A stretch of 64,000 nt of DNA from Ruminococcus sp. (GCA_015066785.1 SVNT01000004.1:126376-190375), one strand, 5' to 3'; positions 9,229-33,528 are shown, counted from the first letter of the stretch. The notes: generated by a model from the letters alone, not told the origin. Numbers and translations: made by a program.

Positions 9229-9299
9229 GTCATTAACTTTGCTATTTTTGCAAATCTGCTGACATTTTCGTTTTGTTCTGCTAGAATGATTTTCGGAAT

Positions 9300-9611
9300 T
9301 CACATTGATTTGAGCAGCTTCAGAATTATATCCTGCTGTTCAATGGTGAGCTTGTTCCAGTTGTCGAGCAGTTCACGCTGTCTGTCGGAAATGACAATAG
9401 GCGAATTGTCGAAGGCGAAGAATTCCGAAAGAGAGATGTGAAAGGCCTCGCAGATATTCATGAGCGACGGTATTGACGGATAGATATTTTTCTTGAACCA
9501 TGAGGAAATCGTGGTCTGCGAAATTCCCGACTCCTCAGAAAGACGATACTCCGTCCAGCCGCGCTCATCTTTCAGTTGTAGTATGCGTTCCAAAACAGTT
9601 ATGACTGCCAC
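9300..9611 (-). CDS. XRE-family helix-turn-helix regulator (copy 1)
   Basis: ERILQLKDERGWTEYRLSEESGISQTTISSW HTH. Close paralog of 27616..27993 in inverted orientation. Confidence 0.8.
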   Translation of the reverse strand: MAVITVLERILQLKDERGWTEYRLSEESGISQTTISSWFKKNIYPSIPSLMNICEAFHISLSEFFAFDNSPIVISDRQRELLDNWNKLTIEQQDIILKLLKSM

Positions 9612-9653
9612 CTCCGATACTATGCTATATCGTTAATTTTATACGATTTCTTA

Positions 9654-9682
9654 TTGACATATAATAATTAAAATAGTATAAT
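9654..9682 (+). promoter_or_regulatory. Consensus sigma-A-type promoter facing the T7SS genes
   Basis: TTGACA (9654-9659), 17 nt spacer, TATAAT (9677-9682). Lies in the divergent region between HTH copy 1 and the receiver-like gene. Confidence 0.6.
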
Positions 9683-9778
9683 AATTACGAATATACTCAG
9701 TATAAGGATAATATGGAGAGTGACAGCCGATTTATTCGGATAACAAGGTATATATTTATCGCAAAGGAGGAAAAAACG

Positions 9779-10189
9779 ATGCCTGATGTTTATGTATATG
9801 ACCCCGATATATTAAGACATGTTCTGACGAAAAAATATTGCTTCAAATATTTTATCCAGAACAACATCCATTCGGAAGTAAAATTCATTACCGATGATAC
9901 GACAGAAGCGAAAGAAGTTTTTTCCGCCGTGACGGAGCAATCGATTTTCATACTGAACTGCGATGAATATACCGATGAGCTGATAGATTCGTTAAAGCAG
10001 GGAAATCCCGAAAGCTACATAATAATAGTCGCAAACGACTTCAACGAAATTCTCCGGAATATGAAATCAGGGCACACTCCCGCAGGATTTATATTGAGAC
10101 CGATGTGTCAGGCTGATATAAACCAAACCATAGGCGACATCATTTCGGATTATACTGCGAAGAATAAAAGATGCGGTATGGCGGGGTGA
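9779..10189 (+). CDS. Stand-alone atypical receiver-like protein (truncated paralog of 22004..22735)
   Basis: ATG at 9779 behind AAAGGAGG. MPDVYVYDPDILRHV... is near-identical at DNA level to the start of the REC-LytTR gene. It stops after the receiver-like domain with no LytTR part. Confidence 0.65.
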   Translation: MPDVYVYDPDILRHVLTKKYCFKYFIQNNIHSEVKFITDDTTEAKEVFSAVTEQSIFILNCDEYTDELIDSLKQGNPESYIIIVANDFNEILRNMKSGHTPAGFILRPMCQADINQTIGDIISDYTAKNKRCGMAG

Positions 10190-10211
10190 AATGTAAACGG
10201 GAGTTTTTATT

Positions 10212-11237
10212 ATGCAGAAAAAATCCAAAATCATCATAATCTCAATAGCGGCGGCACTCGTTCTGGTAGTGGGAGTGTTCACTGCAATATCCCTCATCGG
10301 CTCGTCGGAAGCCCCCGTAGTGCAGGCGGGCACAAGCGAACAGCTCTCGCTGGGGCAGAAGTTCCTCATTGACCTTGAGTATGAAAAAGCCGTGGCGGAG
10401 TTCAATGCCGTAATCGAAATCGAGCCTAAGAATGTCGACGCCTACATAGGTCTTGCCGACGCATATATCGGTATGGGCGATGAAGAAAAGGCAATCGAAA
10501 CCCTCGAAAAAGGTCTTGCCGAAACAGGCGACGAAAGACTGACGGCAAAGCTTGATGAGATGAAGAAGGCTGAAGAAACGACGGTTGAAACAACTACGGT
10601 GCCCGAAACGACAACAACGGCAGAAACCACGCCCGAAACGACAGCAGAAACGACAACCGCACCACAGGGTGCAAGAACAGAAAGAGTCGATAACGACGAT
10701 GGCTCGTATTGGATAGAAGAATACGATTCAAATGGGAATTATATAAAGTCAAGTTTTTATCGTGCCGACGGAACGCTTGAGCATATAGATGAATTTGTTC
10801 CTGATAGACCTGGTTGGATAAAGTACAGTTTTTACAGTGCTGACGGAATGCTTGAGGAGATAGGTGAATACGATTCGGATGGGAAATTGATAAAATGGAG
10901 TCGGTATAGCGCTGACGGAACGCTTGAGCAATACGATATATCTGAATACGATTCGGATGGGAAATTGATAAAATGGAGTCAGTATAGCGCCGACGGAACA
11001 CTAGATTATTACAATATATTTGAATACGGCGTTAAGGAACTTCAATACAGCTATAATAGTGACGGAATGATAACGGAGGTTGCCGTAAACGAACGGTATG
11101 AAAGCGGAGCTTTAAAAAAGCAGACTAGATATACATATTATGATGATGTTGATTATAACGGTATCATTCCCGAATACTGCGATATTACATGGGTTAAAGA
11201 ATACAATGACGGTGAATGTCTTGAGAGTTTCTTGTAG
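10212..11237 (+). CDS. Signal-anchor + TPR N-module protein A, YD/MORN-like repeat ectodomain
   Basis: MQKKSKIIIISIAAALVLVVGVFTAISLIG TM, then a TPR-like LIDLEYEKAVAEFNAVIEIEPKNVDAYIGLADAYIGMGD, a Thr/Glu linker, and repeated YDSDGKLIKWS.YSADGTL units. Confidence 0.75.
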   Translation: MQKKSKIIIISIAAALVLVVGVFTAISLIGSSEAPVVQAGTSEQLSLGQKFLIDLEYEKAVAEFNAVIEIEPKNVDAYIGLADAYIGMGDEEKAIETLEKGLAETGDERLTAKLDEMKKAEETTVETTTVPETTTTAETTPETTAETTTAPQGARTERVDNDDGSYWIEEYDSNGNYIKSSFYRADGTLEHIDEFVPDRPGWIKYSFYSADGMLEEIGEYDSDGKLIKWSRYSADGTLEQYDISEYDSDGKLIKWSQYSADGTLDYYNIFEYGVKELQYSYNSDGMITEVAVNERYESGALKKQTRYTYYDDVDYNGIIPEYCDITWVKEYNDGECLESFL

Positions 11238-11249
11238 GGGGCAACAGAT

Positions 11250-11918
11250 ATGAAAAGCAAAAAATTATGCTATATAATCGATGTGGTTATATTGCTGTCG
11301 CTTATTGCGGTGTGGGGGTATATTCTTATCAAAGAACTGCCCATAAAAACCGTGATTGCTGTTGCTGTACTTTCTCTTATACTTATTATACTCGGCGTTG
11401 TTGTTCTTTTTATGGCAATGAGAAGTAATTATGATGAAAAAAAGCCGGAACCTGTTGTGCAGGAGGATGAAATTCCTGAGGAAAAGGCAGAGAAGAAAAA
11501 GGTAAATAACAATCCCCCTACGCAGTTTCAGTTTGATCCGTCTACGGAATATGTATTTGGCTCCGATGATAACAGGAATACTGCGGACGAAACGGAAATC
11601 ATACCAACAAATAAGAATTACCGCATAGAATTGCGTGACAAGAATAATCCCGTAAAAACCTATCAGACATCATTCTCGGACGAGGCTGTCATAGGCAGAA
11701 TAGAGGGGCGTTGCAATATTGTCATTGCCGACGAAAAGAGCATATCCAGATGTCACTGCAGATTGTTCGTTGAAAACGGCAGGATTATGGCAGAGGATCT
11801 CAAATCATCGAACAGAACATATATAAACGGTACACAAGTCAGTGAAACTGCGCTTGAAATAAAAAGCGGTGATGAGCTTAAAATGGGTAGGGCAAAATTT
11901 ATTGTCACAATAAATTAG
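11250..11918 (+). CDS. FHA-domain membrane protein
   Basis: Two N-terminal TM helices. C-terminal AVIGRIEGRCNIVIADEKSISRCHCRLFVENGRIMAEDLKSSNRTYINGTQV is an FHA signature. Confidence 0.8.
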   Translation: MKSKKLCYIIDVVILLSLIAVWGYILIKELPIKTVIAVAVLSLILIILGVVVLFMAMRSNYDEKKPEPVVQEDEIPEEKAEKKKVNNNPPTQFQFDPSTEYVFGSDDNRNTADETEIIPTNKNYRIELRDKNNPVKTYQTSFSDEAVIGRIEGRCNIVIADEKSISRCHCRLFVENGRIMAEDLKSSNRTYINGTQVSETALEIKSGDELKMGRAKFIVTIN

Positions 11919-11927
11919 GAGGCTTTT

Positions 11928-13694
11928 ATGGAATATTGCGAATACACAAATGCAGGTGTGGTGCGCAATGTCAATCAGGACGCTGTACTTTCGCTTTGTA
12001 TGAACAACTCGGGACTGTTTGTTGTCGCAGACGGAATGGGCGGTCATACCGACGGAGATGTTGCAAGCGGGGCTGTCAGGAGTGCCTGTCTTAAATGGTG
12101 GAATATGTCGTTCATGGCAAATTCGGATATGGATTTGCTCTCGGCTGTTGAGGGGATAAAATCCGCATTAGAGGCCGTGAATACCGAACTTATATCCAGA
12201 ATGGAAGGTACAGGCAAAATCTGCGGAACAACTGTCGCTGTACTCTTTATACATAACGGTGCATATGCCGCTATGAATATAGGTGACAGCAGAATATATC
12301 TGTTGAATAAAAAAGGTGTGCGAAAAATTTCATTTGACCACACCTTGAATTCGTTTAAGGAAATAAAAAATATCAGAGTATCGAAAAAGGATAAACTTAC
12401 ACAGGCAATAGGGGTGAACAAAAGCCCTGATTGGTATTGCGCAACAGACACATTGAAGGGTAACGAAAGATTTTTTATCTGCACAGACGGTGTTTATAAA
12501 TATGTAGATGATGATATGCTTTTTTCCGTGATAAAAAATCGTTCGGAAGAAGATATAAAGGAAGAAATCGAAAAGCAGGTTATTCTGAATGGGGCGCCCG
12601 ATAATTTTTCTTTCATTTCGGTAAATCCGAAAAAAGAAAACAATAAAATATCAAAAAAACCGCTTATTATTGTTTCGGCAATAGCAATTTCACTTTTTAT
12701 TGTGTTTGCAGTAATTTCGGGGATTGCCGTTTCAGGCGGAAGTCATGCGGATGTACAGGTAACCATATCGGATAAGCTGTCGTTGGGGCAGAAGTTCCTT
12801 ATCGACCTTGAGTACGAAAAAGCCGTGGCGGAGTTCAACGCAATCATTGAGATTGAGCCTAAAAATGTCGACGCTTATATAGGCCTTGCCGACGCATATA
12901 TCGGGATGGGTGACAAAAACAAAGCAATTGAAACTCTCGAGAAAGGTTTTTCAGAAACAGGCGACGAAACTATCAGGGCGAAACTCAATGAGATAAGAAA
13001 GGTTGAAGAAACAACAGAGGAAACAACAACGGTTATTGCCGAGCCCGAAAAGAAACCAGTCATAAAAGCGATAAATTATTTCGATCCGAATGCTGGGGCA
13101 TATCAATATAATGCACCGGCGAATTTTATCAATTATATTTATAATGATAAAGGTCAGATAGAAAAAGAAATAGACGGTTATGATGGCAGAGGGGGTTTCT
13201 CATTTGTTTATAACTATGATTCAGACGGAAGATTGCTATCAAAAGAGCAGATTGCAGGCTGGAATGAACCAATGGGTAAGATAACTCTAAACTATAACGA
13301 GAGCGGTTTACTTGTGTCAGAAGAATATATGACCTATTCTTATTTTTCGGAATACACACCGAGAGATGCAGAAAAAAGATATATTATATATACTTATGAT
13401 AACGAAAACAGAATAGTAAAAGCAGACTACTATACAGAAGAAAAGAAAGAATACTATGTAGTTATGCAATATGATGAAAAGGGCAGAATTAAAATCAAAC
13501 AAACATTTAATGCAAATGATGAAGTTCTTGTTTGTTATTATTCCGAATATGACGAAAATGGACTTATTGTAAAAGAAATCAAATGTGATTCATCAAATAA
13601 TCATATCGGATATGTGACATATGAATACGATTACAATATTTTGTCAACTAACACATATTATCCACATTCCGAGTGGGGATATGACAGCTACTAA
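11928..13694 (+). CDS. PP2C-family Ser/Thr phosphatase fused to TM + TPR N-module homolog + YD/MORN-like repeats
   Basis: VADGMGGHTDGDVAS and ICTDGV PP2C motifs, TM (LIIVSAIAISLFIVFAVISGIAV), then LSLGQKFLIDLEYEKAVAEFNAIIEIEPKNVDAYIGLADAYIGMGD as in the anchor family. Confidence 0.85.
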   Translation: MEYCEYTNAGVVRNVNQDAVLSLCMNNSGLFVVADGMGGHTDGDVASGAVRSACLKWWNMSFMANSDMDLLSAVEGIKSALEAVNTELISRMEGTGKICGTTVAVLFIHNGAYAAMNIGDSRIYLLNKKGVRKISFDHTLNSFKEIKNIRVSKKDKLTQAIGVNKSPDWYCATDTLKGNERFFICTDGVYKYVDDDMLFSVIKNRSEEDIKEEIEKQVILNGAPDNFSFISVNPKKENNKISKKPLIIVSAIAISLFIVFAVISGIAVSGGSHADVQVTISDKLSLGQKFLIDLEYEKAVAEFNAIIEIEPKNVDAYIGLADAYIGMGDKNKAIETLEKGFSETGDETIRAKLNEIRKVEETTEETTTVIAEPEKKPVIKAINYFDPNAGAYQYNAPANFINYIYNDKGQIEKEIDGYDGRGGFSFVYNYDSDGRLLSKEQIAGWNEPMGKITLNYNESGLLVSEEYMTYSYFSEYTPRDAEKRYIIYTYDNENRIVKADYYTEEKKEYYVVMQYDEKGRIKIKQTFNANDEVLVCYYSEYDENGLIVKEIKCDSSNNHIGYVTYEYDYNILSTNTYYPHSEWGYDSY

Positions 13695-13714
13695 ACACAC
13701 AACGGAGAAAGATT

Positions 13715-15880
13715 ATGTTTAAACAAGGCGAATTGCTGAACGGGACATACAGAATAATAGAAAACATAGGCTCAGGTGGTGGCGGTGAAATTTACAAAGC
13801 CTATCATACCCACCTCAAATGTAATGTTGCCGTTAAACTTATAAAAGAAAATATAAAAGGAAAGCTTGATGACAGGGCGGAAGCAGACATACTCAAAAAA
13901 ATCAAGCATTCATATCTTCCACAGGTTTTTGACTTTGTTGAAACCGATAACGGTGACATCTATACCGTTATGGAATTTATAGAGGGTTCTTCTTTTCAGG
14001 AGCTTATAAACAACGGCAGAAAGTTTACGCAACAGCAGGTGCTTAAATACGCAAAGCAGATTTGCGAGGCGCTTGCTTATCTGCATACAAGAAAGCCGGC
14101 TATTGTTCATAGCGATATAAAGCCTGCAAACATTATGCTTACCCCCGAAGACAATATATGTATAATAGATTTCAATATCTCCTCCGCACTTAGCGACGGG
14201 GGAGCTTTTGCCGTTGGGAAAAGTGACGGATATTCTCCACCGGAGCAATATGTAAAGAAAAAGAATAACGGTGCTTATCAAGTCGGAGAAGACCAGACTG
14301 AATTTATAGAAAATACCGAAATTATTGCAGAATCCGATACAACAACCGTAATGGCAGACGAAACCGAAGTCATAACAGATACCGATGTTTCAGAAAGTGC
14401 AAAAAGCGACGGTTTCGTTTCAAAATTAATGGTTTCCAGAGCGATTATAAATGAAAGTTCGGATGTCTATGCAGTAGGAGCGACATTATACTGTCTCATA
14501 AGCGGAAGAAGACCCGAAAAGTCGATTGACAAGGTTACTCCGATAACCAGACTGGATGTTACAGCAAGCTACGGACTGAAACATATTATATCAAAAGCAA
14601 TGGAGGTTTCGCAGAAAAAGAGATATGCCAATGCGGGAGAGATGCTTGAAGCACTCAAAGATATTCATTGCATTGAAAAGCTTTACAGAAGTTTTGTTGT
14701 AAGAAATCGTATTGTATACTCTCTTCTGATTTTCGGAACAGCTTTGTTTTCAGTAATTGCGTTTATGGGATACGAAAAAATAGGTATAGAAAAAGCCGTT
14801 ACATATAACGAATATGCCGAAAGACTGGTTGTTCTTCGTGAAAGCGGAGATGTCGACGACTTTGAACAGATTTATTCGGCGGCTGAGGAAATCTATCAGG
14901 ACAGGCTGGATATACATTTCCAGAAGGCACTTTTTCTTTTTGAAAGGGCAGAATACGACGAGTGTATAGAATATATAGATGAAATACTTGCAGATCACCC
15001 CGAATACAATGATGACGCTGAAATGGCAGATCTTTTATTCGTGAATGCAAATTGTTTTTTCGAAAAAGAAGATTACATTTCAGCTATACTGAAGTATAAG
15101 GCTGCAATATACAAAAATTCCGAAAACGGAGAATATTATCGTGATTACGCCATTTCTCTTGCAAGAACAGGGGAACTTGAAAAAGCAGCAGATGCCCTGA
15201 ATCAGGCGACACAGCTCGGTCTGTCCGAAGAAAATATATGCCTTGTCGAAGGCGAAATAGAATTTGTCAGAGGAAGATATGACAAAGCGGAAGAAGCTCT
15301 CCTGAAATGCATAGACATTTCATCCGATGACTATATAAAACAGCGTGCGTATATTCTTTGCGGCAGTGTATATAATCAGTCTGGAAAGCTCACGGAAAAC
15401 GTACGGCTTATGGAATGTGCGCTTGAAGACCTGCCTGAAGAAAGACTGTACGGTATTTATGAAATTCTGGCACAGTGCTATCTGGACATCGGCAAGGAAA
15501 CAGGCAGTGTCGATTATTATCTTAAAGCGATTGATGTGTTTTCGATTATGCAGAAAAAAGGCATCGGCGGATATAGAGTATCCGAAAGTAAAGCAGTGGC
15601 TTTTTACACTGTCGGAGATTGCGAATCTGCAAAAGCAGAATTTGAAAATATGAAAAATGATTTCGGAGAAAATTACAGAATAAGTATGTATCTTGCTTAT
15701 GTGGAACTGCTTGAGGAATCACGCAAGAGCAATAACAACAGGGATTATTCGGATTTTCTGCGGCATTACAATGATGCCGAAAAGCTTTACAAAGAACAGC
15801 TGAAGGAAGGAACTACCGATATTGAAATGCAGGTTCTTGAAGACGCTTATCTTCAGCTCAGGGATGGTAATTGGTTTTAA
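13715..15880 (+). CDS. Hanks-type Ser/Thr protein kinase with TM and extracytoplasmic TPR repeats
   Basis: GSGGGGEIYKA G-loop, VAVKLI Lys, HSDIKPANIM catalytic loop, DFN, SPPE. TM is IVYSLLIFGTALFSVIAFMGY, followed by long TPR-like helical repeats. Confidence 0.85.
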   Translation: MFKQGELLNGTYRIIENIGSGGGGEIYKAYHTHLKCNVAVKLIKENIKGKLDDRAEADILKKIKHSYLPQVFDFVETDNGDIYTVMEFIEGSSFQELINNGRKFTQQQVLKYAKQICEALAYLHTRKPAIVHSDIKPANIMLTPEDNICIIDFNISSALSDGGAFAVGKSDGYSPPEQYVKKKNNGAYQVGEDQTEFIENTEIIAESDTTTVMADETEVITDTDVSESAKSDGFVSKLMVSRAIINESSDVYAVGATLYCLISGRRPEKSIDKVTPITRLDVTASYGLKHIISKAMEVSQKKRYANAGEMLEALKDIHCIEKLYRSFVVRNRIVYSLLIFGTALFSVIAFMGYEKIGIEKAVTYNEYAERLVVLRESGDVDDFEQIYSAAEEIYQDRLDIHFQKALFLFERAEYDECIEYIDEILADHPEYNDDAEMADLLFVNANCFFEKEDYISAILKYKAAIYKNSENGEYYRDYAISLARTGELEKAADALNQATQLGLSEENICLVEGEIEFVRGRYDKAEEALLKCIDISSDDYIKQRAYILCGSVYNQSGKLTENVRLMECALEDLPEERLYGIYEILAQCYLDIGKETGSVDYYLKAIDVFSIMQKKGIGGYRVSESKAVAFYTVGDCESAKAEFENMKNDFGENYRISMYLAYVELLEESRKSNNNRDYSDFLRHYNDAEKLYKEQLKEGTTDIEMQVLEDAYLQLRDGNWF

Positions 15881-15891
15881 GGAGTCGGATT

Positions 15892-16047
15892 ATGGTTGAG
15901 TTGATAAAAAATCTTACAATCGGTGAATTTATGTTTTATGGCGGAATTATCGGTGCGGGACTTTGTGTTCTTGCAATGATAGTCGGGATACCACTTACGG
16001 CAATTGGCAAAAAGCAGATAAAGAACAAAATATATAAGGAGTATTGA
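15892..16047 (+). CDS. 51-aa single-pass membrane peptide
   Basis: AAGGAG RBS overlaps the kinase stop. MVELIKNLTIGEFMFYGGIIGAGLCVLAMIVGIPLTAIGKKQIKNKIYKEY. Below the ORF-track length cutoff. Confidence 0.5.
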   Translation: MVELIKNLTIGEFMFYGGIIGAGLCVLAMIVGIPLTAIGKKQIKNKIYKEY

Positions 16048-16049
16048 TT

Positions 16050-17312: not shown

Positions 17313-17418
17313 TTTAAGAAAGTTCTGATAATCCAATGAGAATAACAATACGAAAATTTTATGTTATATAATTAACGGCACACCAAGATAAACCCCTCTC
17401 GAAAGGACTTGAAAAATT

Positions 17419-20400: not shown

Positions 20401-22011
20401 AAAATGGATACCTCTGATATTGATTTTTCAAAAGGTCTTATATCTGTATTTGGTATGATTGATAATCCCGAAAAGCAATCCCAGTATCCCGCAACGATAG
20501 ATATATCAAAAACATCGAACATACTTGTTTCAGGTATGTCGGGTTCGGGAAAATCAACATTCCTCCAGACAGTTGTCTATTCACTCGTTTCAAACTATAC
20601 GCCCGACGAATTCCAGTTCTATTTTATTGACTTTTCGAGCAGAACAACAAGAAAGTTTGAAAAACTGCCTCATTGCGGCGGAGTTGTTTTCCAGGAAAAC
20701 AGCGAGCATATAGAAAGACTTTTCAAGCTTCTTGATAAAGAGTGCGAAGAAAGGAGAAGGCTTTTTGACGAGGCGAACACAGGTGGATTCGGAGAGTATG
20801 TAAAGAAGAAAAGAATACCTATGATTTTGCTTGTGATAGATAATTACGCAGGCTTCGCCGAAGGCTACCCTGAATTTGCCGAAAAGCTTGCAGCCTTTTC
20901 AAGAGACTGTCTTAAGTATGGAATTCAGCTTATTATCTCAGCAGGCAATCCAAACGATGTCAAATATAAAATGCAGCAGAATATAGGTTACAAAATCGCA
21001 TTACAGCTTTCCGACCGTTATGGATATAACGAGGTGTTCGGAAAATCCCCCGACTTTGCGCCATCCAAATACGCAGGCCGTGGAATTATCAAGGAAAACG
21101 AGCTTCTTGAATTCCAGACAGCTGTACCTTTTGAAATTGCAGATGAAACAGCACGCTCCGACAGAATGATTTCGGATATTTCAGATATTGCACGGAAATA
21201 TAAAAAGCACAAATCCGCAAAGAAAATTCCTGCTTTGCCGAAGGATGAGCCGTATGTTGATTTTTACAGAAACAACAAATCAGACGGACTGATTCCGTTG
21301 GGATATGATACAAATGATATTTCTGTCATAGCACCACTGAGAAAAGATATATTCTGCCTTGCAGTAGGTGGGCGTGAAGAAAAGAGCATTGCTCTCGTAT
21401 TTGACAATCTCGCTTTTTGCGCAAAGCAATCAGGTGCGGTTGTTTGGTATTTCAGGACGACATCGGATATTCTTTGTCAGTCGGAATTTGTGGATAAAAT
21501 CTATACCTCTGCTGACATTATAGAGTTCCTTGAGGGAGTACAGAAAGAATTTGAAGTTGCTTCAGAAATAAGAGGAAAATACAAGGATACAATGAATGCA
21601 ACTGCATTGGAAGAAAAAGTTGTGGAAGAAAAGAAGATGCTGTACATATTCATAGACAGCATGGCTGAATTCCACAAAATAATATACGATGCTTCCAATA
21701 AGTATCCTCTTAACACGCTTGTCGAGGAAACATTCAGATATGGAGAAAAGAGAGGCGTAAGCTTTATTGCGGGATTTGGCCAGGACAGCTATATCGATGC
21801 CGTTCATAGCAATGCCTGCAAGAACTTCCTTCTCAACAAGACGATTCTTCATATGGGCGGATGTCTCGAACAACAGAAGATGTATTCTTCATCATTGCCA
21901 TATAACATCCAGAACAAACCTCTCGATATGAATGTCGGATATTTCTTTGACGGAACGTCCGAAAGACGTATATTCATACCATTATCGGAACGGAGGGAAA
22001 ACGATGCTTGA
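17419..22011 (+). CDS. essC: T7SS FtsK/SpoIIIE-family ATPase EssC
   Basis: 1530 aa. N-terminal FHA-like ITIGMDDSCDIVY..HATL..STNGTFLNG, then two TM helices. Walker A GTTGSGKSE and GMSGSGKST, with a third degenerate P-loop region (VGGREEKS). Confidence 0.9.
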   Translation: MAYIFYFNFKENVYEYPLPAVRNRAVSIDLSEFSSEKGVINLEMFDGVWKLLPSDDFDYFINGAPIKEKEIGDGDKFTVRGKKGGLQFMIFALIASENIRVYKKWSLDGVDTITIGMDDSCDIVYKEQFVSHNHATLKRNGTDFFISDSSTNGTFLNGVKISEETKLSVFDTIYILGLKIIYLGGYIATNKILELDVNLAEVCDTTIEYEPYEDESDFSRSPRRTEPLDDEVVEIEAPPAQHKATSQPLIFIIGPSVTMPLPIMISIVINMMSSGNTANPLMYLGTVISVVCSGFIGAGWALAHQFYNKKTMKKQEEERVKAYGEYIAKNEKLLSEKQDKNKSIMEEQFLSSDKLMSRILEDNTSLWNRNINHADFSTIRFGTGSVKMTNGISIPKERFSMSDDSLADKPREIFDRYNIMEGCAYTTRLIGNKIWGILGEYENVMNIVNNIVVQLSALHSYNDIKIAILCRENEKDKYLWMKWLPHMFTADKKIRMFGCDGNSIKNVCSFLGGELRSREENAGDSSKNQMILPHYFVICTDKNILEKNIISKYIMNNSELGFTFILAYEKMDKLPNECKVIIQHDDTYSGIYSLSSTIDETNSVVFDNVDTKKAERYSRAINGLYLTEFSQGEIPASVDYLDMLGIGRFEQWNLIKKYKENRSYESIASFIGIGAGNRPVILDISEKMHGPHGLVAGTTGSGKSETIQTFILSLILNYSPDEVAFILIDYKGGGMAAAFNGIPHLAGIITNLGGDTGDGEIDENLTRRALISIKSEIKRRQKIFNRFKVNHINQYIKMYRGGTVSEALPHLIIISDEFAELKHKQPEFIKELVSVARVGRSLGIHLILATQKPAGVVDEEIWSNSRFKICLKVQDKQDSMGMLKRPEAAYLVNTGRAYMQVGNDEIFDMFQSGYSGAEYIPTDDFVSSKDKEVIMIDIDGTYLEENIMSENKNQTEVSQLKAGIDYIIAVSAANQIKATRKLWNESLSSLIGLDKMDTSDIDFSKGLISVFGMIDNPEKQSQYPATIDISKTSNILVSGMSGSGKSTFLQTVVYSLVSNYTPDEFQFYFIDFSSRTTRKFEKLPHCGGVVFQENSEHIERLFKLLDKECEERRRLFDEANTGGFGEYVKKKRIPMILLVIDNYAGFAEGYPEFAEKLAAFSRDCLKYGIQLIISAGNPNDVKYKMQQNIGYKIALQLSDRYGYNEVFGKSPDFAPSKYAGRGIIKENELLEFQTAVPFEIADETARSDRMISDISDIARKYKKHKSAKKIPALPKDEPYVDFYRNNKSDGLIPLGYDTNDISVIAPLRKDIFCLAVGGREEKSIALVFDNLAFCAKQSGAVVWYFRTTSDILCQSEFVDKIYTSADIIEFLEGVQKEFEVASEIRGKYKDTMNATALEEKVVEEKKMLYIFIDSMAEFHKIIYDASNKYPLNTLVEETFRYGEKRGVSFIAGFGQDSYIDAVHSNACKNFLLNKTILHMGGCLEQQKMYSSSLPYNIQNKPLDMNVGYFFDGTSERRIFIPLSERRENDA

Positions 22012-22735
22012 TGTTTATGTATATGACTCCGATATATCAAGGCATGTTTCAGTACAAAAATATTGCTTTACATATTTTATTCAGAATAACATCCAGTCTG
22101 AAATCAGATGCATTACCGATAATGTAAAAGAAGCGGGAGAAGTTTTTTCAAAAGCAGAAAGCCAATCGATTTTCATAATAAGTTGTGATGAACATACTGA
22201 TTTTCTTATAAATTCATTGAGGAAAGGAAATCGTGAAAACTATCTTATAATAGTCGCAAATGATTTCAACGATATTCTTCAATATATGAAACCGGGACAT
22301 AATCCTTCCGGTTTCATATTGAGACCTATGACTCAGAATGATATAAATAAGCTCATAGGCGATATAATTTCGGATTATATATCGAAGAAGAAAGAGCACG
22401 GGTTCGGATGCTTTACATTCAAGTCGAAGTCAACGGAGTACAGCATACCCTTTGAGTCTATTCTTTCCTTTGAAAGCGGAAACAAAAAGATAATCGTAAA
22501 AACTTCGGAAAATGAATATTCTTTTTACGGAACGCTTGATGAAATCCAGAATAATCTCCCTGATGGATTTATAAGAATTCATAAAAGCTTTATCATCAAT
22601 ATAGCGTGGATAAAACAGATTGATTATTCCGACTCAAAAATCATTTTAAACAATGGCAATATTGTTTATTTTTCGAGGACATACCGAAATATCATCAAGG
22701 AACTTTTTAACATTGGAACAGAAACTGTTTCATAA
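22004..22735 (+). CDS. Atypical receiver + LytTR DNA-binding regulator, translationally coupled to essC
   Basis: The ATG at 22004 overlaps the essC stop at 22009-22011. The C-terminal half (IPFESILSFES...IRIHKSFIINI...YFSRTYRN) is LytTR-like. Confidence 0.75.
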   Translation: MLDVYVYDSDISRHVSVQKYCFTYFIQNNIQSEIRCITDNVKEAGEVFSKAESQSIFIISCDEHTDFLINSLRKGNRENYLIIVANDFNDILQYMKPGHNPSGFILRPMTQNDINKLIGDIISDYISKKKEHGFGCFTFKSKSTEYSIPFESILSFESGNKKIIVKTSENEYSFYGTLDEIQNNLPDGFIRIHKSFIINIAWIKQIDYSDSKIILNNGNIVYFSRTYRNIIKELFNIGTETVS

Positions 22736-22749
22736 GAAAGGAAATTTAT

Positions 22750-23007
22750 ATGACAAAAATACTTGTCGAAATCAGCTGTCCGTCAACTGCAAGAAGTTAC
22801 GAATTCTGGATTTCAAAGCAGATGCTTATACGGGATATTATAGCAATCTGTATGAAAGAAATCTGTATGACTGAAGGCAGTAAAAGCATTTTCAGTGACA
22901 GCAAGAATATAAGCCTTTTCTCGCAAAGATTGTGTATGCCGCTTAACGAAAACTATACTGCAACGGAAGCGGGAATTATAGGCGGAGACAAACTTATGAT
23001 TGTGTAA
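22750..23007 (+). CDS. esaB: YukD/EsaB-like ubiquitin-fold T7SS protein
   Basis: 85 aa. MTKILVEISCP...YEFWISKQMLIRDII...EAGIIGGDKLMIV matches the YukD pattern, and the gene sits next to essC. Confidence 0.7.
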   Translation: MTKILVEISCPSTARSYEFWISKQMLIRDIIAICMKEICMTEGSKSIFSDSKNISLFSQRLCMPLNENYTATEAGIIGGDKLMIV

Positions 23008-23022
23008 AAGGAGATTTTATTT

Positions 23023-24621
23023 ATGCAGAAAAAATCCAAAATCATCATAATCTCAATAGCGGCGGCACTCGTTCTGGTAGTGGGAGTGTTCACTGCAATA
23101 TCCCTCATCGGCTCGTCGGAAGCCCCCGTAGTGCAAGCGGGCACAAGCGAACAGCTTTCGTTGGGGCAGAAGTTCCTCATTGACCTTGAGTACGAAAAAG
23201 CCGTGGCGGAGTTTAATGCGGTAATAGAAATCGAGCCAAAGAATGTCGACGCTTACATAGGTCTTGCCGACGCATATATCGGTATGGGCGATGAAAACAA
23301 GGCAATAGAAGCCCTCGAAAAAGGTCTTGCTGAAACAGGCGACGAGAGAATCCGGGCAAAGCTTGATGAGGTGAAGAAAGCAGAAGAGACGACAACAGCG
23401 ACAGTTACAACATCTGAAACGACAGAAGCCAGCCCCACAGTTATCATAAAAGAAGATATAGAATTAGCAATAACAAGTGATAAAAAGGCTACAATTACAT
23501 TAAAAAATCTTGACATAAAAGATAGTTATGTTGTTAATAAAGAAACATCTATTATGAATGAGTTGGAATACAGCTGGGGTGTAAGAATGCTCGGAAATCC
23601 TAAGGTACTGGAAGCCTCAATAACATCATGGGCAAACCCTCCCGGCTCTCCTGGGCTGAATAAAGAAAAAACAATTGAAGAAATGCAAAGCGACTTATGG
23701 GATTGCTATGAAGGCGGCGCTGGTCTTGTTGAAAACGCCGTGACAAGTACAACATGTTTTTCAGATAAAATTATATGGGATGTGGTAGTTCCCGATGAAT
23801 ATGATTTTAGTTTTTACAATGTAACAGAATTTGAAATCAGGATTTATGACGGAACTGGCAATTGGGAAGAGCGGGCTGTTGTATTGAATGATGAAACAAC
23901 GGTGGAAACCACAACGGCTCCTGAAACCACAGCTGCATTAGAAAAACCTGAAATAAGATATTTTGACGATTGTTGTTATGCGAAATATCAGTATGATTCA
24001 GACGGAAGGGTAGTTTATGAGGAATTTTATAATAAGATAGAAGATAATATTCCTTATTTGTGTTGTAAAATTCTTTATGATTCGGATGGAAATTTCATAG
24101 GTGAAACAATTGCAACTCCGCCAAGAGGGGGTTATAGTTTGCGTGAGTATGACTCACAGAATAAATTGATAAAAAGCACAGAATATGAGTGGAGCAATGG
24201 CGAAGACATTATTGAAGCCTATTCGAATTATGAGTATAATTCAAATGGCAAACTTGTAAAAGAAATTTATTATTCTTTAAACTATGAAACTCAAGAATTT
24301 GAATTGAGTACGATTTATGAGTATGATTCAAATGGCAAACTTGTAAAAGAAATTTATTATTCTTTAAACTATGAAACTCAAGAATTTGAATTGAGTACGA
24401 TTTATTATGAGTATGATTCAAACGAAAAACTGATAAAAAGAACTACATACAGTACCGATGGAACATATAAGGTGACAGAAGAAAGTGAGACAACTTACTA
24501 CAATGCGGACGGAACAGTAGATTGGGTTTTCTCACGTGGGCTGAAAGATGAAAAAAATGGTCGGCTTAGCACATATGAAAAACATTGTCACCACCACAAA
24601 CCTGGCGCACAGTACGATTAA
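23023..24621 (+). CDS. Signal-anchor + TPR N-module protein D, mixed beta-rich + YD/MORN-like ectodomain
   Basis: Same N-module. The C-terminus contains a perfect 87-bp tandem duplication. Confidence 0.75.
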   Translation: MQKKSKIIIISIAAALVLVVGVFTAISLIGSSEAPVVQAGTSEQLSLGQKFLIDLEYEKAVAEFNAVIEIEPKNVDAYIGLADAYIGMGDENKAIEALEKGLAETGDERIRAKLDEVKKAEETTTATVTTSETTEASPTVIIKEDIELAITSDKKATITLKNLDIKDSYVVNKETSIMNELEYSWGVRMLGNPKVLEASITSWANPPGSPGLNKEKTIEEMQSDLWDCYEGGAGLVENAVTSTTCFSDKIIWDVVVPDEYDFSFYNVTEFEIRIYDGTGNWEERAVVLNDETTVETTTAPETTAALEKPEIRYFDDCCYAKYQYDSDGRVVYEEFYNKIEDNIPYLCCKILYDSDGNFIGETIATPPRGGYSLREYDSQNKLIKSTEYEWSNGEDIIEAYSNYEYNSNGKLVKEIYYSLNYETQEFELSTIYEYDSNGKLVKEIYYSLNYETQEFELSTIYYEYDSNEKLIKRTTYSTDGTYKVTEESETTYYNADGTVDWVFSRGLKDEKNGRLSTYEKHCHHHKPGAQYD

Positions 24622-24630
24622 GCTTAACGA

Positions 24631-24663
24631 AAAAAGGACAACCATTAAAGGTTGTCCTTTTTT
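24631..24663. terminator. Bidirectional terminator between convergent anchor genes D and E
   Basis: GGACAACC ATTAAA GGTTGTCC hairpin flanked by A-run and T-run. Confidence 0.75.
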
Positions 24664-24669
24664 GTGGGG

Positions 24670-26235
24670 TTAGTCGATATATTCAGACAAATCCCATTCA
24701 TAATATGAGGGGTTGCTCGTTGAAATGTTGTCGGGGCAGTTTGTTATATAGCAATTTGTAGTTATTACTGTATCGAGTTTCTGCATATCGGCAAGCGGGC
24801 TGAGGTCTGAAACATTTGTGTCGTATAAAAAAAGACATTCAAGGTCTTTACAATTCTCAAGCGGGCTGATATCCGAAACCTGTGTATCTCCGATATTCAA
24901 CATTCTGAGTTTCGTCATTCCCGATAATGCGGATATATCATATATGTAGATGGTATCGTAATTTGATGCTGTTGTATCAGATACAGATAATGCTCTCATT
25001 TCTGTCATGCCCGATAACGCAGATAAATCCTTAGGATTATTTCCCGAAAGCTCAAGCACTTTCAGTTGTGTCATTCCTGATAATGCAGATATATCGCTTA
25101 TGTTGTTGTTGCTAAGATTTAGAGTTTCAAGTTTTGTCATTCCTGATAATGCAGATATATCGCTTATGTTGTTGCTGGCAAGACTTAGATATTCAAGTTT
25201 TGTCATTCCTGATAATGCAGATATATCACTTATGTTGGTACTATAAAGATATAACTCATTCATATTTGTCATATCAGATAATGCAGATATATCGCTTATG
25301 TTGGTGTAGCTAAGAGCTAGATATTCAAGTTTTGTCATTCCTGATAATGCAGATATATCGCTTATGTTGTTGTAGCCAAGACCTAGAAATTCAAGTTTTG
25401 TCATTCCTGATAATGCGGATATATCGCGTATGTTGTTGTAGCCAAGTTGGAGGAAATCAAGGTTTACAAGCCCTGAAAGTCCTGAAATATCATAAAGTGC
25501 TGAACAATGTAATTCGAGATGCTTTAATTGTTTCATTTCACCTATAACCGATATATTTTCTTTTGAAAGGTTAAAGCCTGCTATTTCAAGAACTTCGAGT
25601 TGTTCGAGTAATGCTATTTTTTCAAGTTCTTTCGGATTAAACATTGCATTTTCGACAACAAAACTCTGTTCTATATCTATATCGAGATCTTCTTTAAACC
25701 ATTCTACCTCTTCTTTGATGTATTCCTCTGCGTCATCATAGCTATCATAATTTTCGATATTACTGCTTATTATAACAAGCGATTTACAATCGGCAGGGAT
25801 TTCGTTTGAAAATATTTCTATCGGCTTTGGTTTCAATTCTTCAATCTTCTTTTCAATCTTTTCGATTTTTTCATCGACAATCTTCTTATCCTCATCAGAA
25901 AGTTCGTCATAGCCTTCCTTGATAGCAACAAGCCCTTTCTCAAGGGTTTCGATTGCCTTGTTTTCGTCGCCCATACCGATATATGCGTCGGCAAGACCTA
26001 TATAAGCGTCGACATTCTTTGGCTCGATTTCGATTACGGCATTGAACTCCGCCACGGCTTTTTCGTACTCAAGGTCAATGAGGAACTTCTGCCCCAGCGA
26101 GAGCTGTTCGCTTGTACCCGCCTGCACTACGGGGGCTTCCGACGAGCCGATGAGGGATATTGCAGTGAACACTCCCACTACCAGAACGAGTGCCGCCGCT
26201 ATTGAGATTATAATAATTTTCGATTTTTTCTGCAT
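24670..26235 (-). CDS. Signal-anchor + TPR N-module protein E, leucine-rich-repeat ectodomain
   Basis: Same N-module through ...ETLEKGL, then about ten 22-aa LRR units (LSGMTKLEYLSLASNNISDISA). Confidence 0.8.
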   Translation of the reverse strand: MQKKSKIIIISIAAALVLVVGVFTAISLIGSSEAPVVQAGTSEQLSLGQKFLIDLEYEKAVAEFNAVIEIEPKNVDAYIGLADAYIGMGDENKAIETLEKGLVAIKEGYDELSDEDKKIVDEKIEKIEKKIEELKPKPIEIFSNEIPADCKSLVIISSNIENYDSYDDAEEYIKEEVEWFKEDLDIDIEQSFVVENAMFNPKELEKIALLEQLEVLEIAGFNLSKENISVIGEMKQLKHLELHCSALYDISGLSGLVNLDFLQLGYNNIRDISALSGMTKLEFLGLGYNNISDISALSGMTKLEYLALSYTNISDISALSDMTNMNELYLYSTNISDISALSGMTKLEYLSLASNNISDISALSGMTKLETLNLSNNNISDISALSGMTQLKVLELSGNNPKDLSALSGMTEMRALSVSDTTASNYDTIYIYDISALSGMTKLRMLNIGDTQVSDISPLENCKDLECLFLYDTNVSDLSPLADMQKLDTVITTNCYITNCPDNISTSNPSYYEWDLSEYID

Positions 26236-26265
26236 AAATAAAATCTCCTTCTGAATTTTAACAGA

Positions 26266-27474
26266 TTATTTTTTTAAATCAATAAGCATTTCCTTCATAA
26301 TATTATGTAGTTTATCGTTACTTTCCTTTATGTCATCAGATTGATTTATTATAATTTTTTCTCCTATTCTCACCTTGTATTTTTTTGATTTTACTTTCTC
26401 GATAACAACAGGAATGATAGGTGCGTTTGTAATCTGCGCCACTCTTACCGCACCATAACGGAAAGGTAGCAGGAGTTCATTTGTTTTATTACGGGTACCC
26501 TCGGGAAAAACAATCAGGTTGCCTTTGTTGAGTATAGTCTGAATCATCACCAATCTTGAAGTTTTTCCTGAAATCTTGCTGTATCTGTTGACATAAATCG
26601 TTCCTAACGGTTTTTGTAAAAATCTCAGAGGAGAAAGTTCGTATTCTTTCTTTGTAAGAAGCCTTGCAAAACGGTTTTTCAACACAAGATATGCAATAGG
26701 AATATCCGATGAACGCCTATGATTAAAAACAAAAATACTCCCATCTGATTCAGGAATATTATTCTGGTTTTCGATTTCAAGTTTTAAAAAACAGGACACT
26801 ATTTTTCCTAATGTTTTCATTATGATTTTGTGATTTGATTTGTATTTTTCATATTCTTCCTCATCAAAAGGAATTCTGTTATAATCACTTATGGAGTTTG
26901 TTCTGTTGATTTTATTTATTTTGCTGTATAAATCCCCGAAATCCGATACAAATTCAAAATCAGGCATATGAGAATTATATCCTGCCTGCATGCATAATAC
27001 ATTGCATACATCCTTTAAAAGTTGTATATTTTCAGGGTCATCCTCTATAAAGCAATCTATATCCAGTTCTTTTGCCAATCTGAATTTTTCTTTGGCAGCA
27101 TTATGAGTATTCACAAAATAAATGTCATCATAACAGACATTGTTTTTATATAACCATTTTTTCAGAATATTCCGTATAATCCTGCCGAACAAAAAATTGT
27201 TCGCATATGCTCGGGCAGTTATGATATATATTTTATGCCCCTGTTTTTTCAATTCACGCATTACCGCAGATGCGTTTTCCCTTATAGGCATATTGATTAT
27301 ATACCATACAAAATGCTTTATATGAAATTTCAGTTCTTTCTTTTTTGTCCAGTTGTATCTTTTTTGTAAATCAAGTTCTGTTTTATTTATTGAATTTGAT
27401 TTGGCATAATAATCAAGATACCATTCATAATCCGTAAAAACTCCATCAACATCTATGGCGATATTCATCATCAA
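26266..27474 (-). CDS. HAD-like phosphatase / nucleotidase-like domain fused to PlsC-type lysophospholipid acyltransferase
   Basis: N-terminal IAIDVDGVFTD (HAD motif I). C-terminal FNHRRSSD (HX4D) and FPEGTRN acyltransferase motifs. Confidence 0.65.
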   Translation of the reverse strand: MMMNIAIDVDGVFTDYEWYLDYYAKSNSINKTELDLQKRYNWTKKKELKFHIKHFVWYIINMPIRENASAVMRELKKQGHKIYIITARAYANNFLFGRIIRNILKKWLYKNNVCYDDIYFVNTHNAAKEKFRLAKELDIDCFIEDDPENIQLLKDVCNVLCMQAGYNSHMPDFEFVSDFGDLYSKINKINRTNSISDYNRIPFDEEEYEKYKSNHKIIMKTLGKIVSCFLKLEIENQNNIPESDGSIFVFNHRRSSDIPIAYLVLKNRFARLLTKKEYELSPLRFLQKPLGTIYVNRYSKISGKTSRLVMIQTILNKGNLIVFPEGTRNKTNELLLPFRYGAVRVAQITNAPIIPVVIEKVKSKKYKVRIGEKIIINQSDDIKESNDKLHNIMKEMLIDLKK

Positions 27475-27553
27475 AACCTCTTTTTAAAAATATATAAACA
27501 AACTTGAATTTTCTTTGAAATGAATTCTATTTATAATAAGTATAATCGTATTT

Positions 27554-27582
27554 ATTATACTATTTTAATTATTACCTGTAAA
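27554..27582 (-). promoter_or_regulatory. Sigma-A-type promoter (mirror copy of 9654-9682) facing the acyltransferase/LRR operon
   Basis: On the minus strand: TTTACA, 17 nt, TATAAT. The surrounding sequence is the inverted copy of the 9620-9700 region. Confidence 0.5.
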
Positions 27583-27615
27583 CGAAAAATCGTATAAAAT
27601 TAACGATATAGACAT

Positions 27616-27993
27616 ATGCGGGAGGTGGTAGTCATAACCGTTTTAGAGCGTATTCTTCAACTGAAGAATGAGCGCGGATGGACAGAATACCGTCTTTCAG
27701 AAGAATCGGGAATTGCACAGACCACGATTTCTTCATGGCTTAAAAAGAACATCAATCCTTCCATCCCATCGCTCATAAGTATTTGTGAAGCATTCCACAT
27801 CTCTCTTTCGGAATTTTTCGCCTTTGACAACTCGCCTGTTGTCATATCCGACAGACAACGTGAACTGCTTGACAACTGGAACAAACTGACCATTGAACAG
27901 CAGGATATTGTTTTAAACCTGCTTAAATCAATGCAGCCGACAAGGATATTCTATCAGAATATCCCGAAGGTTTCAGTCGGTTTGCAAAAATAG
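27616..27993 (+). CDS. XRE-family helix-turn-helix regulator (copy 2)
   Basis: ITVLERILQLKNERGWTEYRLSEESGIAQTTISSW... Paralog of 9300..9611 with a different ~20-aa C-terminal extension. Confidence 0.8.
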   Translation: MREVVVITVLERILQLKNERGWTEYRLSEESGIAQTTISSWLKKNINPSIPSLISICEAFHISLSEFFAFDNSPVVISDRQRELLDNWNKLTIEQQDIVLNLLKSMQPTRIFYQNIPKVSVGLQK

Positions 27994-28031
27994 CAAAGAT
28001 TATGTCGAAAAAAACAAAAATCCACACTCCT

Positions 28032-30626: not shown

Positions 30627-30629
30627 ATC

Positions 30630-31550: not shown

Positions 31551-31859
31551 GTGGTGTTGGGTCTTTTAAATATATACTGGGATATCAGTCAGCTTGAGGA
31601 AATGAAATCAAAACTCCAGAAAAAGCGTGATGAATTTGCCGAAACGCAAAACACATTCATAGGCCAGCAGAACCTCCTGACTTCCGTCTGGAAGGGCGAT
31701 GCAGGCGATCTTGTGAATTACAGGCTGAGCATTGACAAGGACAAATTCGAAACAATTGTACGCCATATGGATTGGCAGATATCCGTTCTGGAATACGCCA
31801 TAAACCGATACCGTCAATGTGAAAATAATGTCCTGAACAAAGTCAGAAGAGTCGGCTGA
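31551..31859 (+). CDS. WXG100-like small helical protein
   Basis: GTG start after AAAGGAGA. SVWKGDAG is a W-x-G motif at the helix-turn-helix centre. About 100 aa. Confidence 0.55.
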   Translation: MVLGLLNIYWDISQLEEMKSKLQKKRDEFAETQNTFIGQQNLLTSVWKGDAGDLVNYRLSIDKDKFETIVRHMDWQISVLEYAINRYRQCENNVLNKVRRVG

Positions 31860-31892
31860 AATGCAAAAAGTCTTTGACAAGAGGTGATATAA

Positions 31893-33495: not shown

Positions 33496-33528
33496 TTTAA
33501 ATATAAATCAACGAAAGGACAAAGAATT

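Follow-up and report, generated by a model that had tools for sequence, protein, structure and literature searches.

A type VII secretion locus of Ruminococcus sp. with an embedded, portable Ser/Thr signalling module: a variant of a published class with possible phospho-threonine gating of EssC

Membrane kinases, PPM phosphatases, separate FHA proteins and small single-transmembrane (TM) proteins mark the type VII secretion systems (T7SS) that were defined as T7SSc-j by Garrett, Higginson & Palmer (microLife 2024; PMC11217815). In these systems the kinases have an EssB-like topology and conserved active sites, the resemblance being noted for TscD, and a control by phosphorylation was explicitly proposed by analogy with the type VI secretion system (T6SS). 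Within the class, T7SSj is characterized by a TPR-tailed kinase and T7SSi by a LytR-like regulator, and the activation of T7SS transcription by IreK in Enterococcus faecalis is cited in the same work (PMC11217815). In Schaalia, a preprint (September 2026) describes a sensor/kinase/phosphatase pathway, Esr, that phosphorylates EsrG on Thr152, in the linker before the FHA domain, and controls Esx expression; the output of Esr1 is transcriptional, and the Esx-adjacent Esr2 acts after transcription and is required for the export of late effectors. This pathway was described as confined to Actinomycetes (PMC13622651), and no publication on a Ruminococcus or Oscillospiraceae version was found in the literature searched. 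The locus analysed here lies in a stretch of 64,000 nucleotides (nt) from Ruminococcus sp. (GCA_015066785.1 SVNT01000004.1:126376-190375, hereafter the window) and is read, with moderate confidence, as a non-canonical T7SS with an embedded, portable Ser/Thr signalling module that would gate the ATPase EssC via phospho-threonine and FHA domains. Its architecture is not new in kind, the class and the gating hypothesis having already been published (PMC11217815); what is new here are a catalytically invariant kinase family, T-E-x-[I/L] repeats that fit FHA docking, and the portability of the module, and current views are not overturned.

The core of the locus is the gene of the EssC/TsxC ATPase (17419..22011, plus strand), a protein in which an FHA region at the N-terminus is combined with two TM helices and FtsK-type NTPase domains. 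It reaches 1070 bits on NCBIfam TIGR03928 (T7_EssCb_Firm, cut-off 778) and has two Pfam matches to FtsK_SpoIIIE and one to FHA (residues 113-175), its TM helices lying at about residues 248-303. Walker A sites are intact at residues 697 (GTTGSGKS) and 1039 (GMSGSGKS) and a third one is degenerate (VGGREEKS), so that the description given of this protein by an earlier sequence-only reading of the window holds. The same reading had assigned the 85-aa product of 22750..23007 (plus strand) to the YukD/EsaB type. By sequence, this protein has no significant match: Pfam YukD is the sole family, at E=0.3 though end-to-end, and a sequence-profile search of the PDB returned chance matches only. By fold, however, its AlphaFold2 model is a beta-grasp with a predicted local distance difference test score (pLDDT) of 91.5, for which Foldseek retrieves SUMO/NEDD8 at E ~5e-6 and gives top TM-scores (structural similarity) of 0.79 and 0.76 to EccD5 and EccD1, the ubiquitin-like domains of mycobacterial T7SS. 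Because of this beta-grasp model and of its best TM-scores to EccD ubiquitin-like domains, the predicted structure supports a ubiquitin-like, YukD/EsaB/TsxB-type assignment, which stands by fold and not by sequence. The positional orthologue in one related locus (L012) has a weak precomputed YukD match, and an identical copy is annotated in a metagenome-assembled genome (MAG) of Ruminococcus sp.

Compared with the T7SSb of S. aureus (Ess) and B. subtilis (Yuk), the window shares an EssC with an FHA region, the YukD/EsaB fold, WXG100 proteins, effectors with helical N-domains and immunity genes, but differs in lacking EssB/YukC, EsaA/YueB and EssA/YueC and in possessing an active-looking kinase, a phosphatase and an FHA protein. 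The absence of the three membrane components, already noticed from the sequence, was borne out by profile searches with Pfam and NCBIfam, which gave zero matches for any open reading frame (ORF) of the 8-28 kb region at E<=0.01, selected small ORFs being negative against the EssB, EsaA and EssA models even at E<=10. In terms of EssB, neither PF10140 nor the TIGR model of this protein matches any ORF, and the sole protein with a kinase fold has all its catalytic residues. As regards EssA/YueC, a 51-aa TM peptide of the locus is negative at E<=10 in Pfam and NCBIfam, sequence models being weak for proteins so short. Finally, the longest ORF besides EssC in the window does not exceed 721 aa, and since EssC alone is larger, a large polytopic protein of the EsaA or TsxI type is absent. 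The layout is thus not that of T7SSb, as the sequence-only reading had stated; the architecture has already been published, the class being the T7SSc-j one.

Directly upstream of essC, and on the same strand, four genes were pointed out from the sequence alone, and all four are real. The FHA protein (11250..11918) consists of two TM helices and, at the C-terminus, an FHA domain (Pfam FHA, E=3e-17), and DUF6382 was not detected in it even at E<=10. The PP2C/PPM phosphatase (11928..13694) comprises a cytoplasmic part (residues 1-235), a TM helix (241-274) and an extracytoplasmic part with TPR and YD-like repeats; it scores 133.6 bits over the full NCBIfam Stp1/IreP model, matches Pfam PP2C_2, TPR_19 and RHS_repeat, and displays the DGMGGH, TDG and PDN motifs. 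The Hanks-type Ser/Thr kinase (13715..15880) combines a cytoplasmic kinase domain (Pkinase, E=1e-37), one TM helix and, after it, an extracytoplasmic TPR domain (Pfam TPR_2/12/14/16), hydropathy indicating for both kinase and phosphatase a catalytic domain on the cytoplasmic side and a C-terminal part, with its TPR, on the outer one. Its G-loop, K41, E56, H132, D134, K136, N139, D152-F-N154 and P-P-E177 are invariant among 120 homologues, and its best PDB matches are Snf1, PknB, StkP and PknA, EssB not being among them; the kinase is therefore catalytically intact and active-looking, as judged from its residues. The last of these genes, directly after that of the kinase, encodes the 51-aa single-TM peptide (15892..16047), which has a Lys-rich C-terminal tail, is 78% identical to its orthologue in a related locus (L007) and resembles a small component of the TsxK/TsxH type.

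Candidate phosphorylation sites are found in two of these proteins. Within its kinase domain, the window kinase carries a 72-aa insert with TEFI195, TEII201 and TEVI217; in the kinase family this insert measures 23-206 aa and lies between the PPEQ motif and subdomain IX. In terms of density, T-E-x-[ILVM] motifs reach 2.07 per 100 aa in the inserts versus 0.13 elsewhere (~16-fold), and 201 of them were observed in the inserts against 15.7 +/- 4.0 in shuffles, other kinase lineages presenting repeated T-V-L-L or T-E-x-F instead. In the same line, the linker of the window FHA protein contains TEYV99 and TEII115, and the 90 aa that precede the FHA domain in 42 FHA proteins neighbouring these kinases hold 46 motifs of the T-E-x-[ILVMF] or T-V-L-L type, compared to 7.3 +/- 2.6 in shuffles, with at least two motifs in 17 proteins. 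A pT-x-x-(I/L) sequence is the established preference of many FHA domains, and GarA/OdhI are built with their regulatory Thr shortly before this domain. The T-E-x-[I/L] repeats of the kinase insert and of the FHA linker would hence fit as candidate FHA docking sites, and the linker sites, by analogy, fit the GarA/OdhI and EsrG design with its Thr just before the FHA domain.

As for the reader of such sites, the sequence-only reading had proposed that phospho-threonine is read by the EssC/FHA domains. In the FHA domain of EssC, S131, H134, S150, N152 and G153 are retained, whereas Met stands in place of the canonical Arg (G-M, not G-R), an Arg being found there in only 35 of 117 members of the clade. 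The FHA domain of the stand-alone protein displays the canonical G-R and S-x-x-H (S-R-C-H) motifs as well as S-S-N. Because G-R and S-x-x-H are present in the latter and the Arg is lacking in EssC, the stand-alone FHA protein appears more likely than EssC to be the phospho-threonine reader, so that the proposal holds better for this protein than for the ATPase. A TEPL motif of EssC (residue 225) was also considered as a phospho-site and dropped, the Thr column being I, M or L in most relatives.

The essC gene is followed by that of a LytTR DNA-binding regulator (22004..22735, plus strand; Pfam LytTR, E=2e-21), the first 8 nt of which lie within the end of essC. Its atypical, receiver-like N-domain has a (beta-alpha)5 order by predicted secondary structure; the AlphaFold2 model, built on a two-sequence alignment, has a pLDDT of only 54, and a fold search from this model was dropped in favour of the secondary-structure order alone. 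Since the column of the acceptor Asp is not conserved in the receiver-like domain, the regulator likely takes another input. No conserved T-E-x-I motif is present inside the LytTR protein, a single copy being found at its extreme C-terminus.

Among the published subtypes, T7SSj (C. acetobutylicum/C. felsineum) resembles the locus by an FHA-bearing TsxC, WXG100 proteins, TsxB and the lack of EssB, EsaA and EssA and, by domain description, by a TPR-tailed membrane kinase (TsjD), a PPM phosphatase (TsjF), a separate FHA protein (TsjJ) and a single-TM protein (TsjK). However, the large, Sec-exported, Ig-like TsjI with its C-terminal TM helix is absent from the window, whose FHA protein has two TM helices without detectable DUF6382, whose phosphatase is membrane-anchored and fused to TPR-YD repeats, and which adds the LytTR regulator and a family of TM-TPR-(YD/LRR) paralogues. 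With T7SSe/T7SSd (Bacillota/Actinomycetota), the locus shares a kinase, a PPM phosphatase (T7SSe), an FHA protein, small TM proteins, a pair of WXG100 proteins and an ATPase that carries FHA, whereas no equivalents of TseH/TseI were recognised in the window and the C-domain of its kinase is of the TPR type. T7SSi (Vallitalea) likewise encodes in its cluster a LytR/LytTR-type regulator (TsiN, which has a CheY-like domain), an ATPase that bears FHA, and WXG100 proteins whose genes vary in position, but possesses an EspG-like TsiG and a ParA-like TsiM and is devoid of a clear Hanks kinase/PPM/FHA triad; no ParA/MinD-type protein was found here with Pfam.

The ATPase itself was aligned, together with eleven relatives, with ten TsxC representatives whose partial sequences were machine-read from Fig. 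S2 of the defining paper, the supplementary accession lists of which carry no organism names (PMC11217815). Over 702 shared columns, the identity to the window EssC is 45% for TsiC, 42% for TsfC and TsgC, 41% for TseC, 39% for TscC and TshC, 36% for S. aureus EssC, TsdC and TsjC (35.9% for the latter), and 26% for EccC. The clade of the window EssC (43-76% identity), among whose members are Holdemania massiliensis as well as Erysipelotrichaceae and Lachnospiraceae MAGs, forms a separate branch in a rough tree, weakly sister to TsdC/TseC(/TsiC) with ~59 of 100 neighbour-joining bootstraps, and thus appears separate from the published subtypes. An assignment to T7SSj by gene content was rejected, provisionally in view of the partial references, given that the ATPase is not sister to TsjC and that TsjI is absent. 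Pending a proper phylogeny, the gene content and alignment identify the locus as a mosaic variant of the published class, with T7SSj/e-like content and a T7SSi-like LytTR, and without TsxI.

The composition of the locus is conserved in relatives. Six EssC-centred neighbourhoods, in which EssC identity goes from 68% down to 36%, were compared: the kinase, an 82-87-aa ubiquitin-like gene and a WXG100 cluster are present in all six, PP2C in five, and LytTR directly after essC in five, while a separate FHA protein is confidently found in three, two of them being vWA-FHA fusions (L008 and L010), with one additional weak case (L009). The co-occurrence of the kinase, PP2C and FHA genes with essC extends from Oscillospiraceae to Erysipelotrichaceae. 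In metagenomes, 80 EssC-centred loci were scanned with hidden Markov models built from the relatives' loci; 30 of them span at least 18 kb, and of these 30, 18 encode a kinase, a PP2C or an FHA protein, 24 the ubiquitin-like protein and 22 WXG proteins. When the well-flanked metagenome loci with an EssC of at least 35% identity are considered, 11 of 13 have at least one of the three signalling genes. The TPR-kinase family is detected in only three of the 30 loci, meaning that the type of kinase varies. The window locus itself occurs in several metagenomes at 99.9-100% identity. A minimal arrangement was observed in the metagenome locus L159 (8771-15288; L148 and L170 are similar), where an EssC of 32% identity is followed by an 87-aa ubiquitin-like gene, beside ribosomal L13/S9, and where kinase, PP2C, FHA, EssB and WXG100 were not detected within 10 kb.

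From the side of the kinase, the family, recognized by the signature CLIDFNIS, is present in at least 406 GTDB species. Its neighbourhood was surveyed in 36 loci with full 10-kb flanks, which contain TM-TPR proteins in 31 cases, the 50-aa peptide in 23, an FHA protein in 18 and PP2C in 12. In Merdimonas faecis, the kinase family and an FHA protein stand beside an FHA-FHA-ABC_tran-ABC2_membrane transporter (L071:7099-9408), possibly another class of exporter with FHA domains that the kinase module serves. In Blautia caecimuris (L036:742-12207), the kinase, the peptide, a TM-TPR protein and a DUF6382-FHA protein (TsxJ-like) adjoin Tad pilus genes (TadE, prepilin peptidase, DUF5702), with no EssC within 10 kb. 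Since it is also found beside the FHA-ABC transporter and beside the Tad genes, the kinase/peptide/TM-TPR module is portable; FHA-domain proteins are encoded next to it in both of these non-T7 loci. Besides, zinc-ribbon and TM-TPR-WG-repeat proteins are present in L071, and Sporofaciens (L088:7121-9451) has a protein that matches the L071 transporter in size and position. Matches that looked EssC-like in L071 and L088 (E ~1e-17) were rejected, the L071 protein being the FHA-FHA-ABC transporter, and the EssC threshold of the kinase survey was tightened to 1e-50 after these matches.

Threonine-phosphorylation control, with phosphorylation, binding and secretion all predicted from sequence, is the best-supported reading of the locus. 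In this model, the TPR/YD/LRR ectodomains would sense an envelope or cell-contact cue, and the kinase would phosphorylate the T-E-x-I repeats of its own insert and of the FHA-protein linker. FHA domains would then bind the phospho-threonine sites, most likely through the stand-alone protein and, with less certainty, through the N-terminus of EssC, and this binding would promote the assembly or activation of EssC. The PP2C phosphatase would reset the switch, and the same signal probably reaches transcription through the LytTR regulator and its atypical receiver. In the T6SS, a gate that works after translation and depends on phospho-threonine/FHA binding is known from PpkA/PppA/Fha1 and from the TssL-Fha pair of A. 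tumefaciens. The T6SS pathway shares with the window a membrane Hanks kinase, a PP2C phosphatase and an FHA protein encoded within the secretion locus, but serves an unrelated machine in Gram-negative hosts, and hence provides an analogy only.

Several points weigh against gating by phospho-threonine. The membrane channel former of a system without recognisable EssB, EsaA and EssA is not accounted for by the genes found. EssC itself may not read phospho-threonine, as Met replaces the phosphate-binding Arg of its FHA domain and few members of the clade have the Arg. The T-x-x-[IL] patterns were defined after viewing the sequences, which makes the motif statistics indicative only. The kinase is within view in only eight of the 30 metagenome EssC loci and, conversely, a true EssC lies within 10 kb in nine of the 36 kinase loci and any T7SS marker in 11. 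Because ~70% of the kinase-family loci have no such marker within this distance, the link between kinase and secretion is not obligatory. The same counts bear on the proposal of the sequence-only reading that an active kinase may occupy the position of EssB. In its strict form, the kinase would be a core subunit replacing the EssB pseudokinase and constitutively binding the FHA region of EssC, phosphorylation being secondary. Such a substitution would be in agreement with the bitopic nature of the kinase, which like EssB combines a cytoplasmic kinase fold, one TM helix and an extracytoplasmic helical domain, with the lack of any EssB, with the position of the kinase gene 1.5 kb upstream of essC and its presence in all six EssC-centred neighbourhoods, and with the same resemblance noted for TscD (PMC11217815). 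Nevertheless, the catalytic residues are invariant, unlike those of a pseudokinase, no sequence similarity to EssB was found, the kinase type varies among EssC relatives (TPR-kinase in three of 30), and most loci of the family are without T7SS marker within 10 kb, those of L071 and L036 lying with FHA-ABC and Tad genes. The proposal is therefore weakened and the substitution is considered unlikely; given the invariant catalysis and a portable family that mostly occurs away from T7SS markers, the module is more likely a portable regulator than a dedicated EssB replacement.

A purely transcriptional control, in which the kinase, PP2C and FHA proteins would act on LytTR and possibly on the XRE regulators and not on the secretion machine, would explain why LytTR directly follows essC in five of six relatives and from where a receiver without conserved acceptor Asp gets the other input that it needs; it also has precedents in the Esr1 output of Schaalia (PMC13622651) and in the IreK-dependent activation cited above. 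On the other hand, the FHA protein is anchored in the membrane next to the machine, EssC has an FHA domain itself, LytTR is devoid of a conserved internal T-E-x-I, and it is Esr2, the Esx-adjacent copy in Schaalia, that acts after transcription (PMC13622651), which together leave this explanation improbable. Still less credit is given to a separate, co-located system, according to which kinase, peptide, TM-TPR, FHA and PP2C proteins would form an independent envelope-sensing or surface-protein module that just shares an island with the T7SS. The frequency of the module without T7SS markers in well-flanked species loci is what such a separation would predict, as are the low guanine-plus-cytosine (GC) content of the whole block and its bracketing by an inverted repeat. 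However, the module's genes are interspersed among essC, the ubiquitin-like gene and the WXG genes, all on one strand and separated by very short gaps only, the association persists across families from 68% to 36% EssC identity, and both non-T7 partner loci inspected also encode FHA-domain proteins.

Coming back to threonine-phosphorylation control by a portable module, the Esr pathway of Actinomycetales (PMC13622651) is a close parallel: both have variable surface sensors, a kinase/phosphatase pair, an FHA output and a linker Thr upstream of FHA, both are only partially linked to T7SS (40% for Esr versus ~30% here), and vWA-FHA fusions exist in L008 and L010. The difference is that Esr uses MoxR, vWA and beta-propeller filament sensors, whereas here the sensors would be TM-TPR-(YD/LRR/WG) proteins, and no MoxR was seen. 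A broader proposal, put forward tentatively and judged possible rather than probable, is that of a counterpart of Esr in gut Clostridia, in which a portable set made of DFN-type kinase, 50-aa TM peptide, PP2C, FHA and diversifying TM-TPR-(YD/LRR/WG) sensors would plug into EssC, FHA-ABC exporters and Tad pili via pT-x-x-(I/L); together with EssC it would constitute a T7SS subtype, its ATPase clade being apart from T7SSa-j, widespread in Oscillospiraceae, Lachnospiraceae and Erysipelotrichaceae. The activation of T7SS and the formation of their channel outside model organisms are poorly understood, and with this locus the kinase/phosphatase/FHA variants are extended to a lineage of gut commensals (Ruminococcus and relatives). 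It offers concrete candidate phospho-sites in the T-E-x-I repeats that the kinase insert and the linker of the FHA protein contain, candidate sensors in the TM-TPR-YD/LRR paralogues and in the sensor-phosphatase fusion, and a regulatory module apparently common to other envelope machines. Cultured relatives with the same layout, namely Holdemania massiliensis, Hydrogeniiclostridium mannosilyticum and Merdimmobilis hominis, would make the gating hypothesis testable.

The genes of the machinery form a tight series with very short gaps on the plus strand from 9.7 to 24.6 kb, in a block whose GC content is below that of its flanks. In order, this series encodes a receiver-like protein of 136 aa, a TM-TPR-repeat protein, the 2-TM FHA protein, the PP2C-TM-TPR-repeat protein, the Hanks kinase-TM-TPR protein, the 51-aa TM peptide, a second TM-TPR-repeat protein, EssC, LytTR, the 85-aa protein and a third TM-TPR-repeat protein, after which a TM-TPR-LRR gene lies on the minus strand. 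Paralogue 1 (10212..11237, plus strand) is a TM-TPR-YD-like surface protein with Pfam TPR_19 and DUF2963, MORN-like repeats and a signal-anchor TM segment at residues 2-37, the initial 300 nt of its gene being 94-97% identical to those of the paralogues; paralogue 2 (16050..17312, plus strand), of the same type, matches DUF2963, TPR_19 and RHS_repeat and belongs to repeat family D2; paralogue 3 (23023..24621, plus strand), also TM-TPR-YD-like by Pfam, contains repeat D5 and an 87-nt tandem repeat; paralogue 4 (24670..26235, minus strand) has internalin-like LRRs (LRR_4, E=1e-50) together with TPR_19 and carries the inverted repeats I1-I3. The first 300-330 nt of these genes are 93-97% identical and the sequences diverge beyond, the TM-TPR part of the phosphatase being a module of the same family (repeat families D2 and I5). 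Between the window and two strains of the same species (L001 and L003), which are 99.93-99.95% identical to it over 13-19 kb, paralogue 3 differs in length (532 aa here versus 503 aa) by the copy number of the 87-nt repeat (24224-24397), and paralogue 4 (521 versus 499 aa) by the number of 66-nt LRR units (24981-25501).

At the start of the series, the 136-aa receiver-like protein (9779..10189, plus strand) has no Pfam match and is, by alignment, a truncated paralogue of the N-domain of the LytTR regulator (65% aa identity; direct repeats D3 and D6). As this stand-alone gene opens the operon and a TM-TPR paralogue comes next, the LytTR/ubiquitin-like/TM-TPR segment seems to have been duplicated in part. 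The machinery block is bracketed by an inverted repeat of ~500 nt (9218-9712 versus 27524-28017; repeats I4, I6 and I7) with ~84% identity, which could be a mediator of inversion or a duplicated regulatory cassette. Each copy consists of an XRE-type helix-turn-helix (HTH) regulator gene and a divergent promoter region, the regulator being divergent from the operon at both ends; that of the left copy (9300..9611, minus strand) gives RstR/PuuR-like matches in NCBIfam. A protein of 341 aa with one TM helix, encoded at 8107-9132, was excluded from the system, as it has no family match and no counterpart in the T7SS loci of relatives. The limits proposed from the sequence alone, 9300-27993, do enclose the machinery, but the 26.3-28.0 kb region (HAD-acyltransferase and XRE regulator) lies outside the system, which runs on to 35.2 kb. 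The WXG100/CHAP cluster found there, the LytTR gene after essC, the TM-TPR-(YD/LRR) family and a toxin/immunity island at 40-50 kb had all been overlooked.

This WXG100 module, at 31.5-35.2 kb on the plus strand, was located by tblastn with the proteins of relatives' loci (L007). It starts with two small WXG100-like helical proteins (31578..32231, comprising 31578-31859 and 31893-32231; weak Pfam WXG100 and YwqH-like matches) that are probably Lap-like targeting partners. They are followed by a candidate secreted effector (32249..33178) made of a WXG100-like helical N-domain (WXG100, E=1e-4), a Gly/Ser linker and a CHAP domain, a peptidoglycan amidase/peptidase family matched at E=4e-6, above cut-off; this protein is 40% identical to a 343-aa protein of L007. 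Next come two WXG100 proteins equivalent to TsxA1/TsxA2 (33202..33852, comprising 33202-33495 and 33529-33852), which score 49.4 and 48.9 bits against a Pfam cut-off of 27.3 and are 66-69% identical to the L007 pair. The cluster is closed by a conserved helical protein of 440 aa (33921..35243) without Pfam family, 22% identical to the 415-aa protein at the same position in L008. The interval that separates the machinery block from the WXG100 cluster contains, on the minus strand (29274-31454) and divergent from this cluster, the genes of an AgrC-like GHKL histidine kinase with six TM helices and of a canonical LytTR response regulator; through this pair, effector expression may receive an input of the quorum type.

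Finally, a minus-strand island at 40266-50095, with a GC content of 0.34 and a strong negative GC skew, looks like a T7SS effector/immunity array. It contains the best EsxA-like protein of the window, a WXG100 protein of 73 bits (48912-49205). Also encoded there are a ribonuclease-domain protein (46909-47490) and a YezG-like immunity protein (40266-40895), besides numerous small ORFs that belong to no family.

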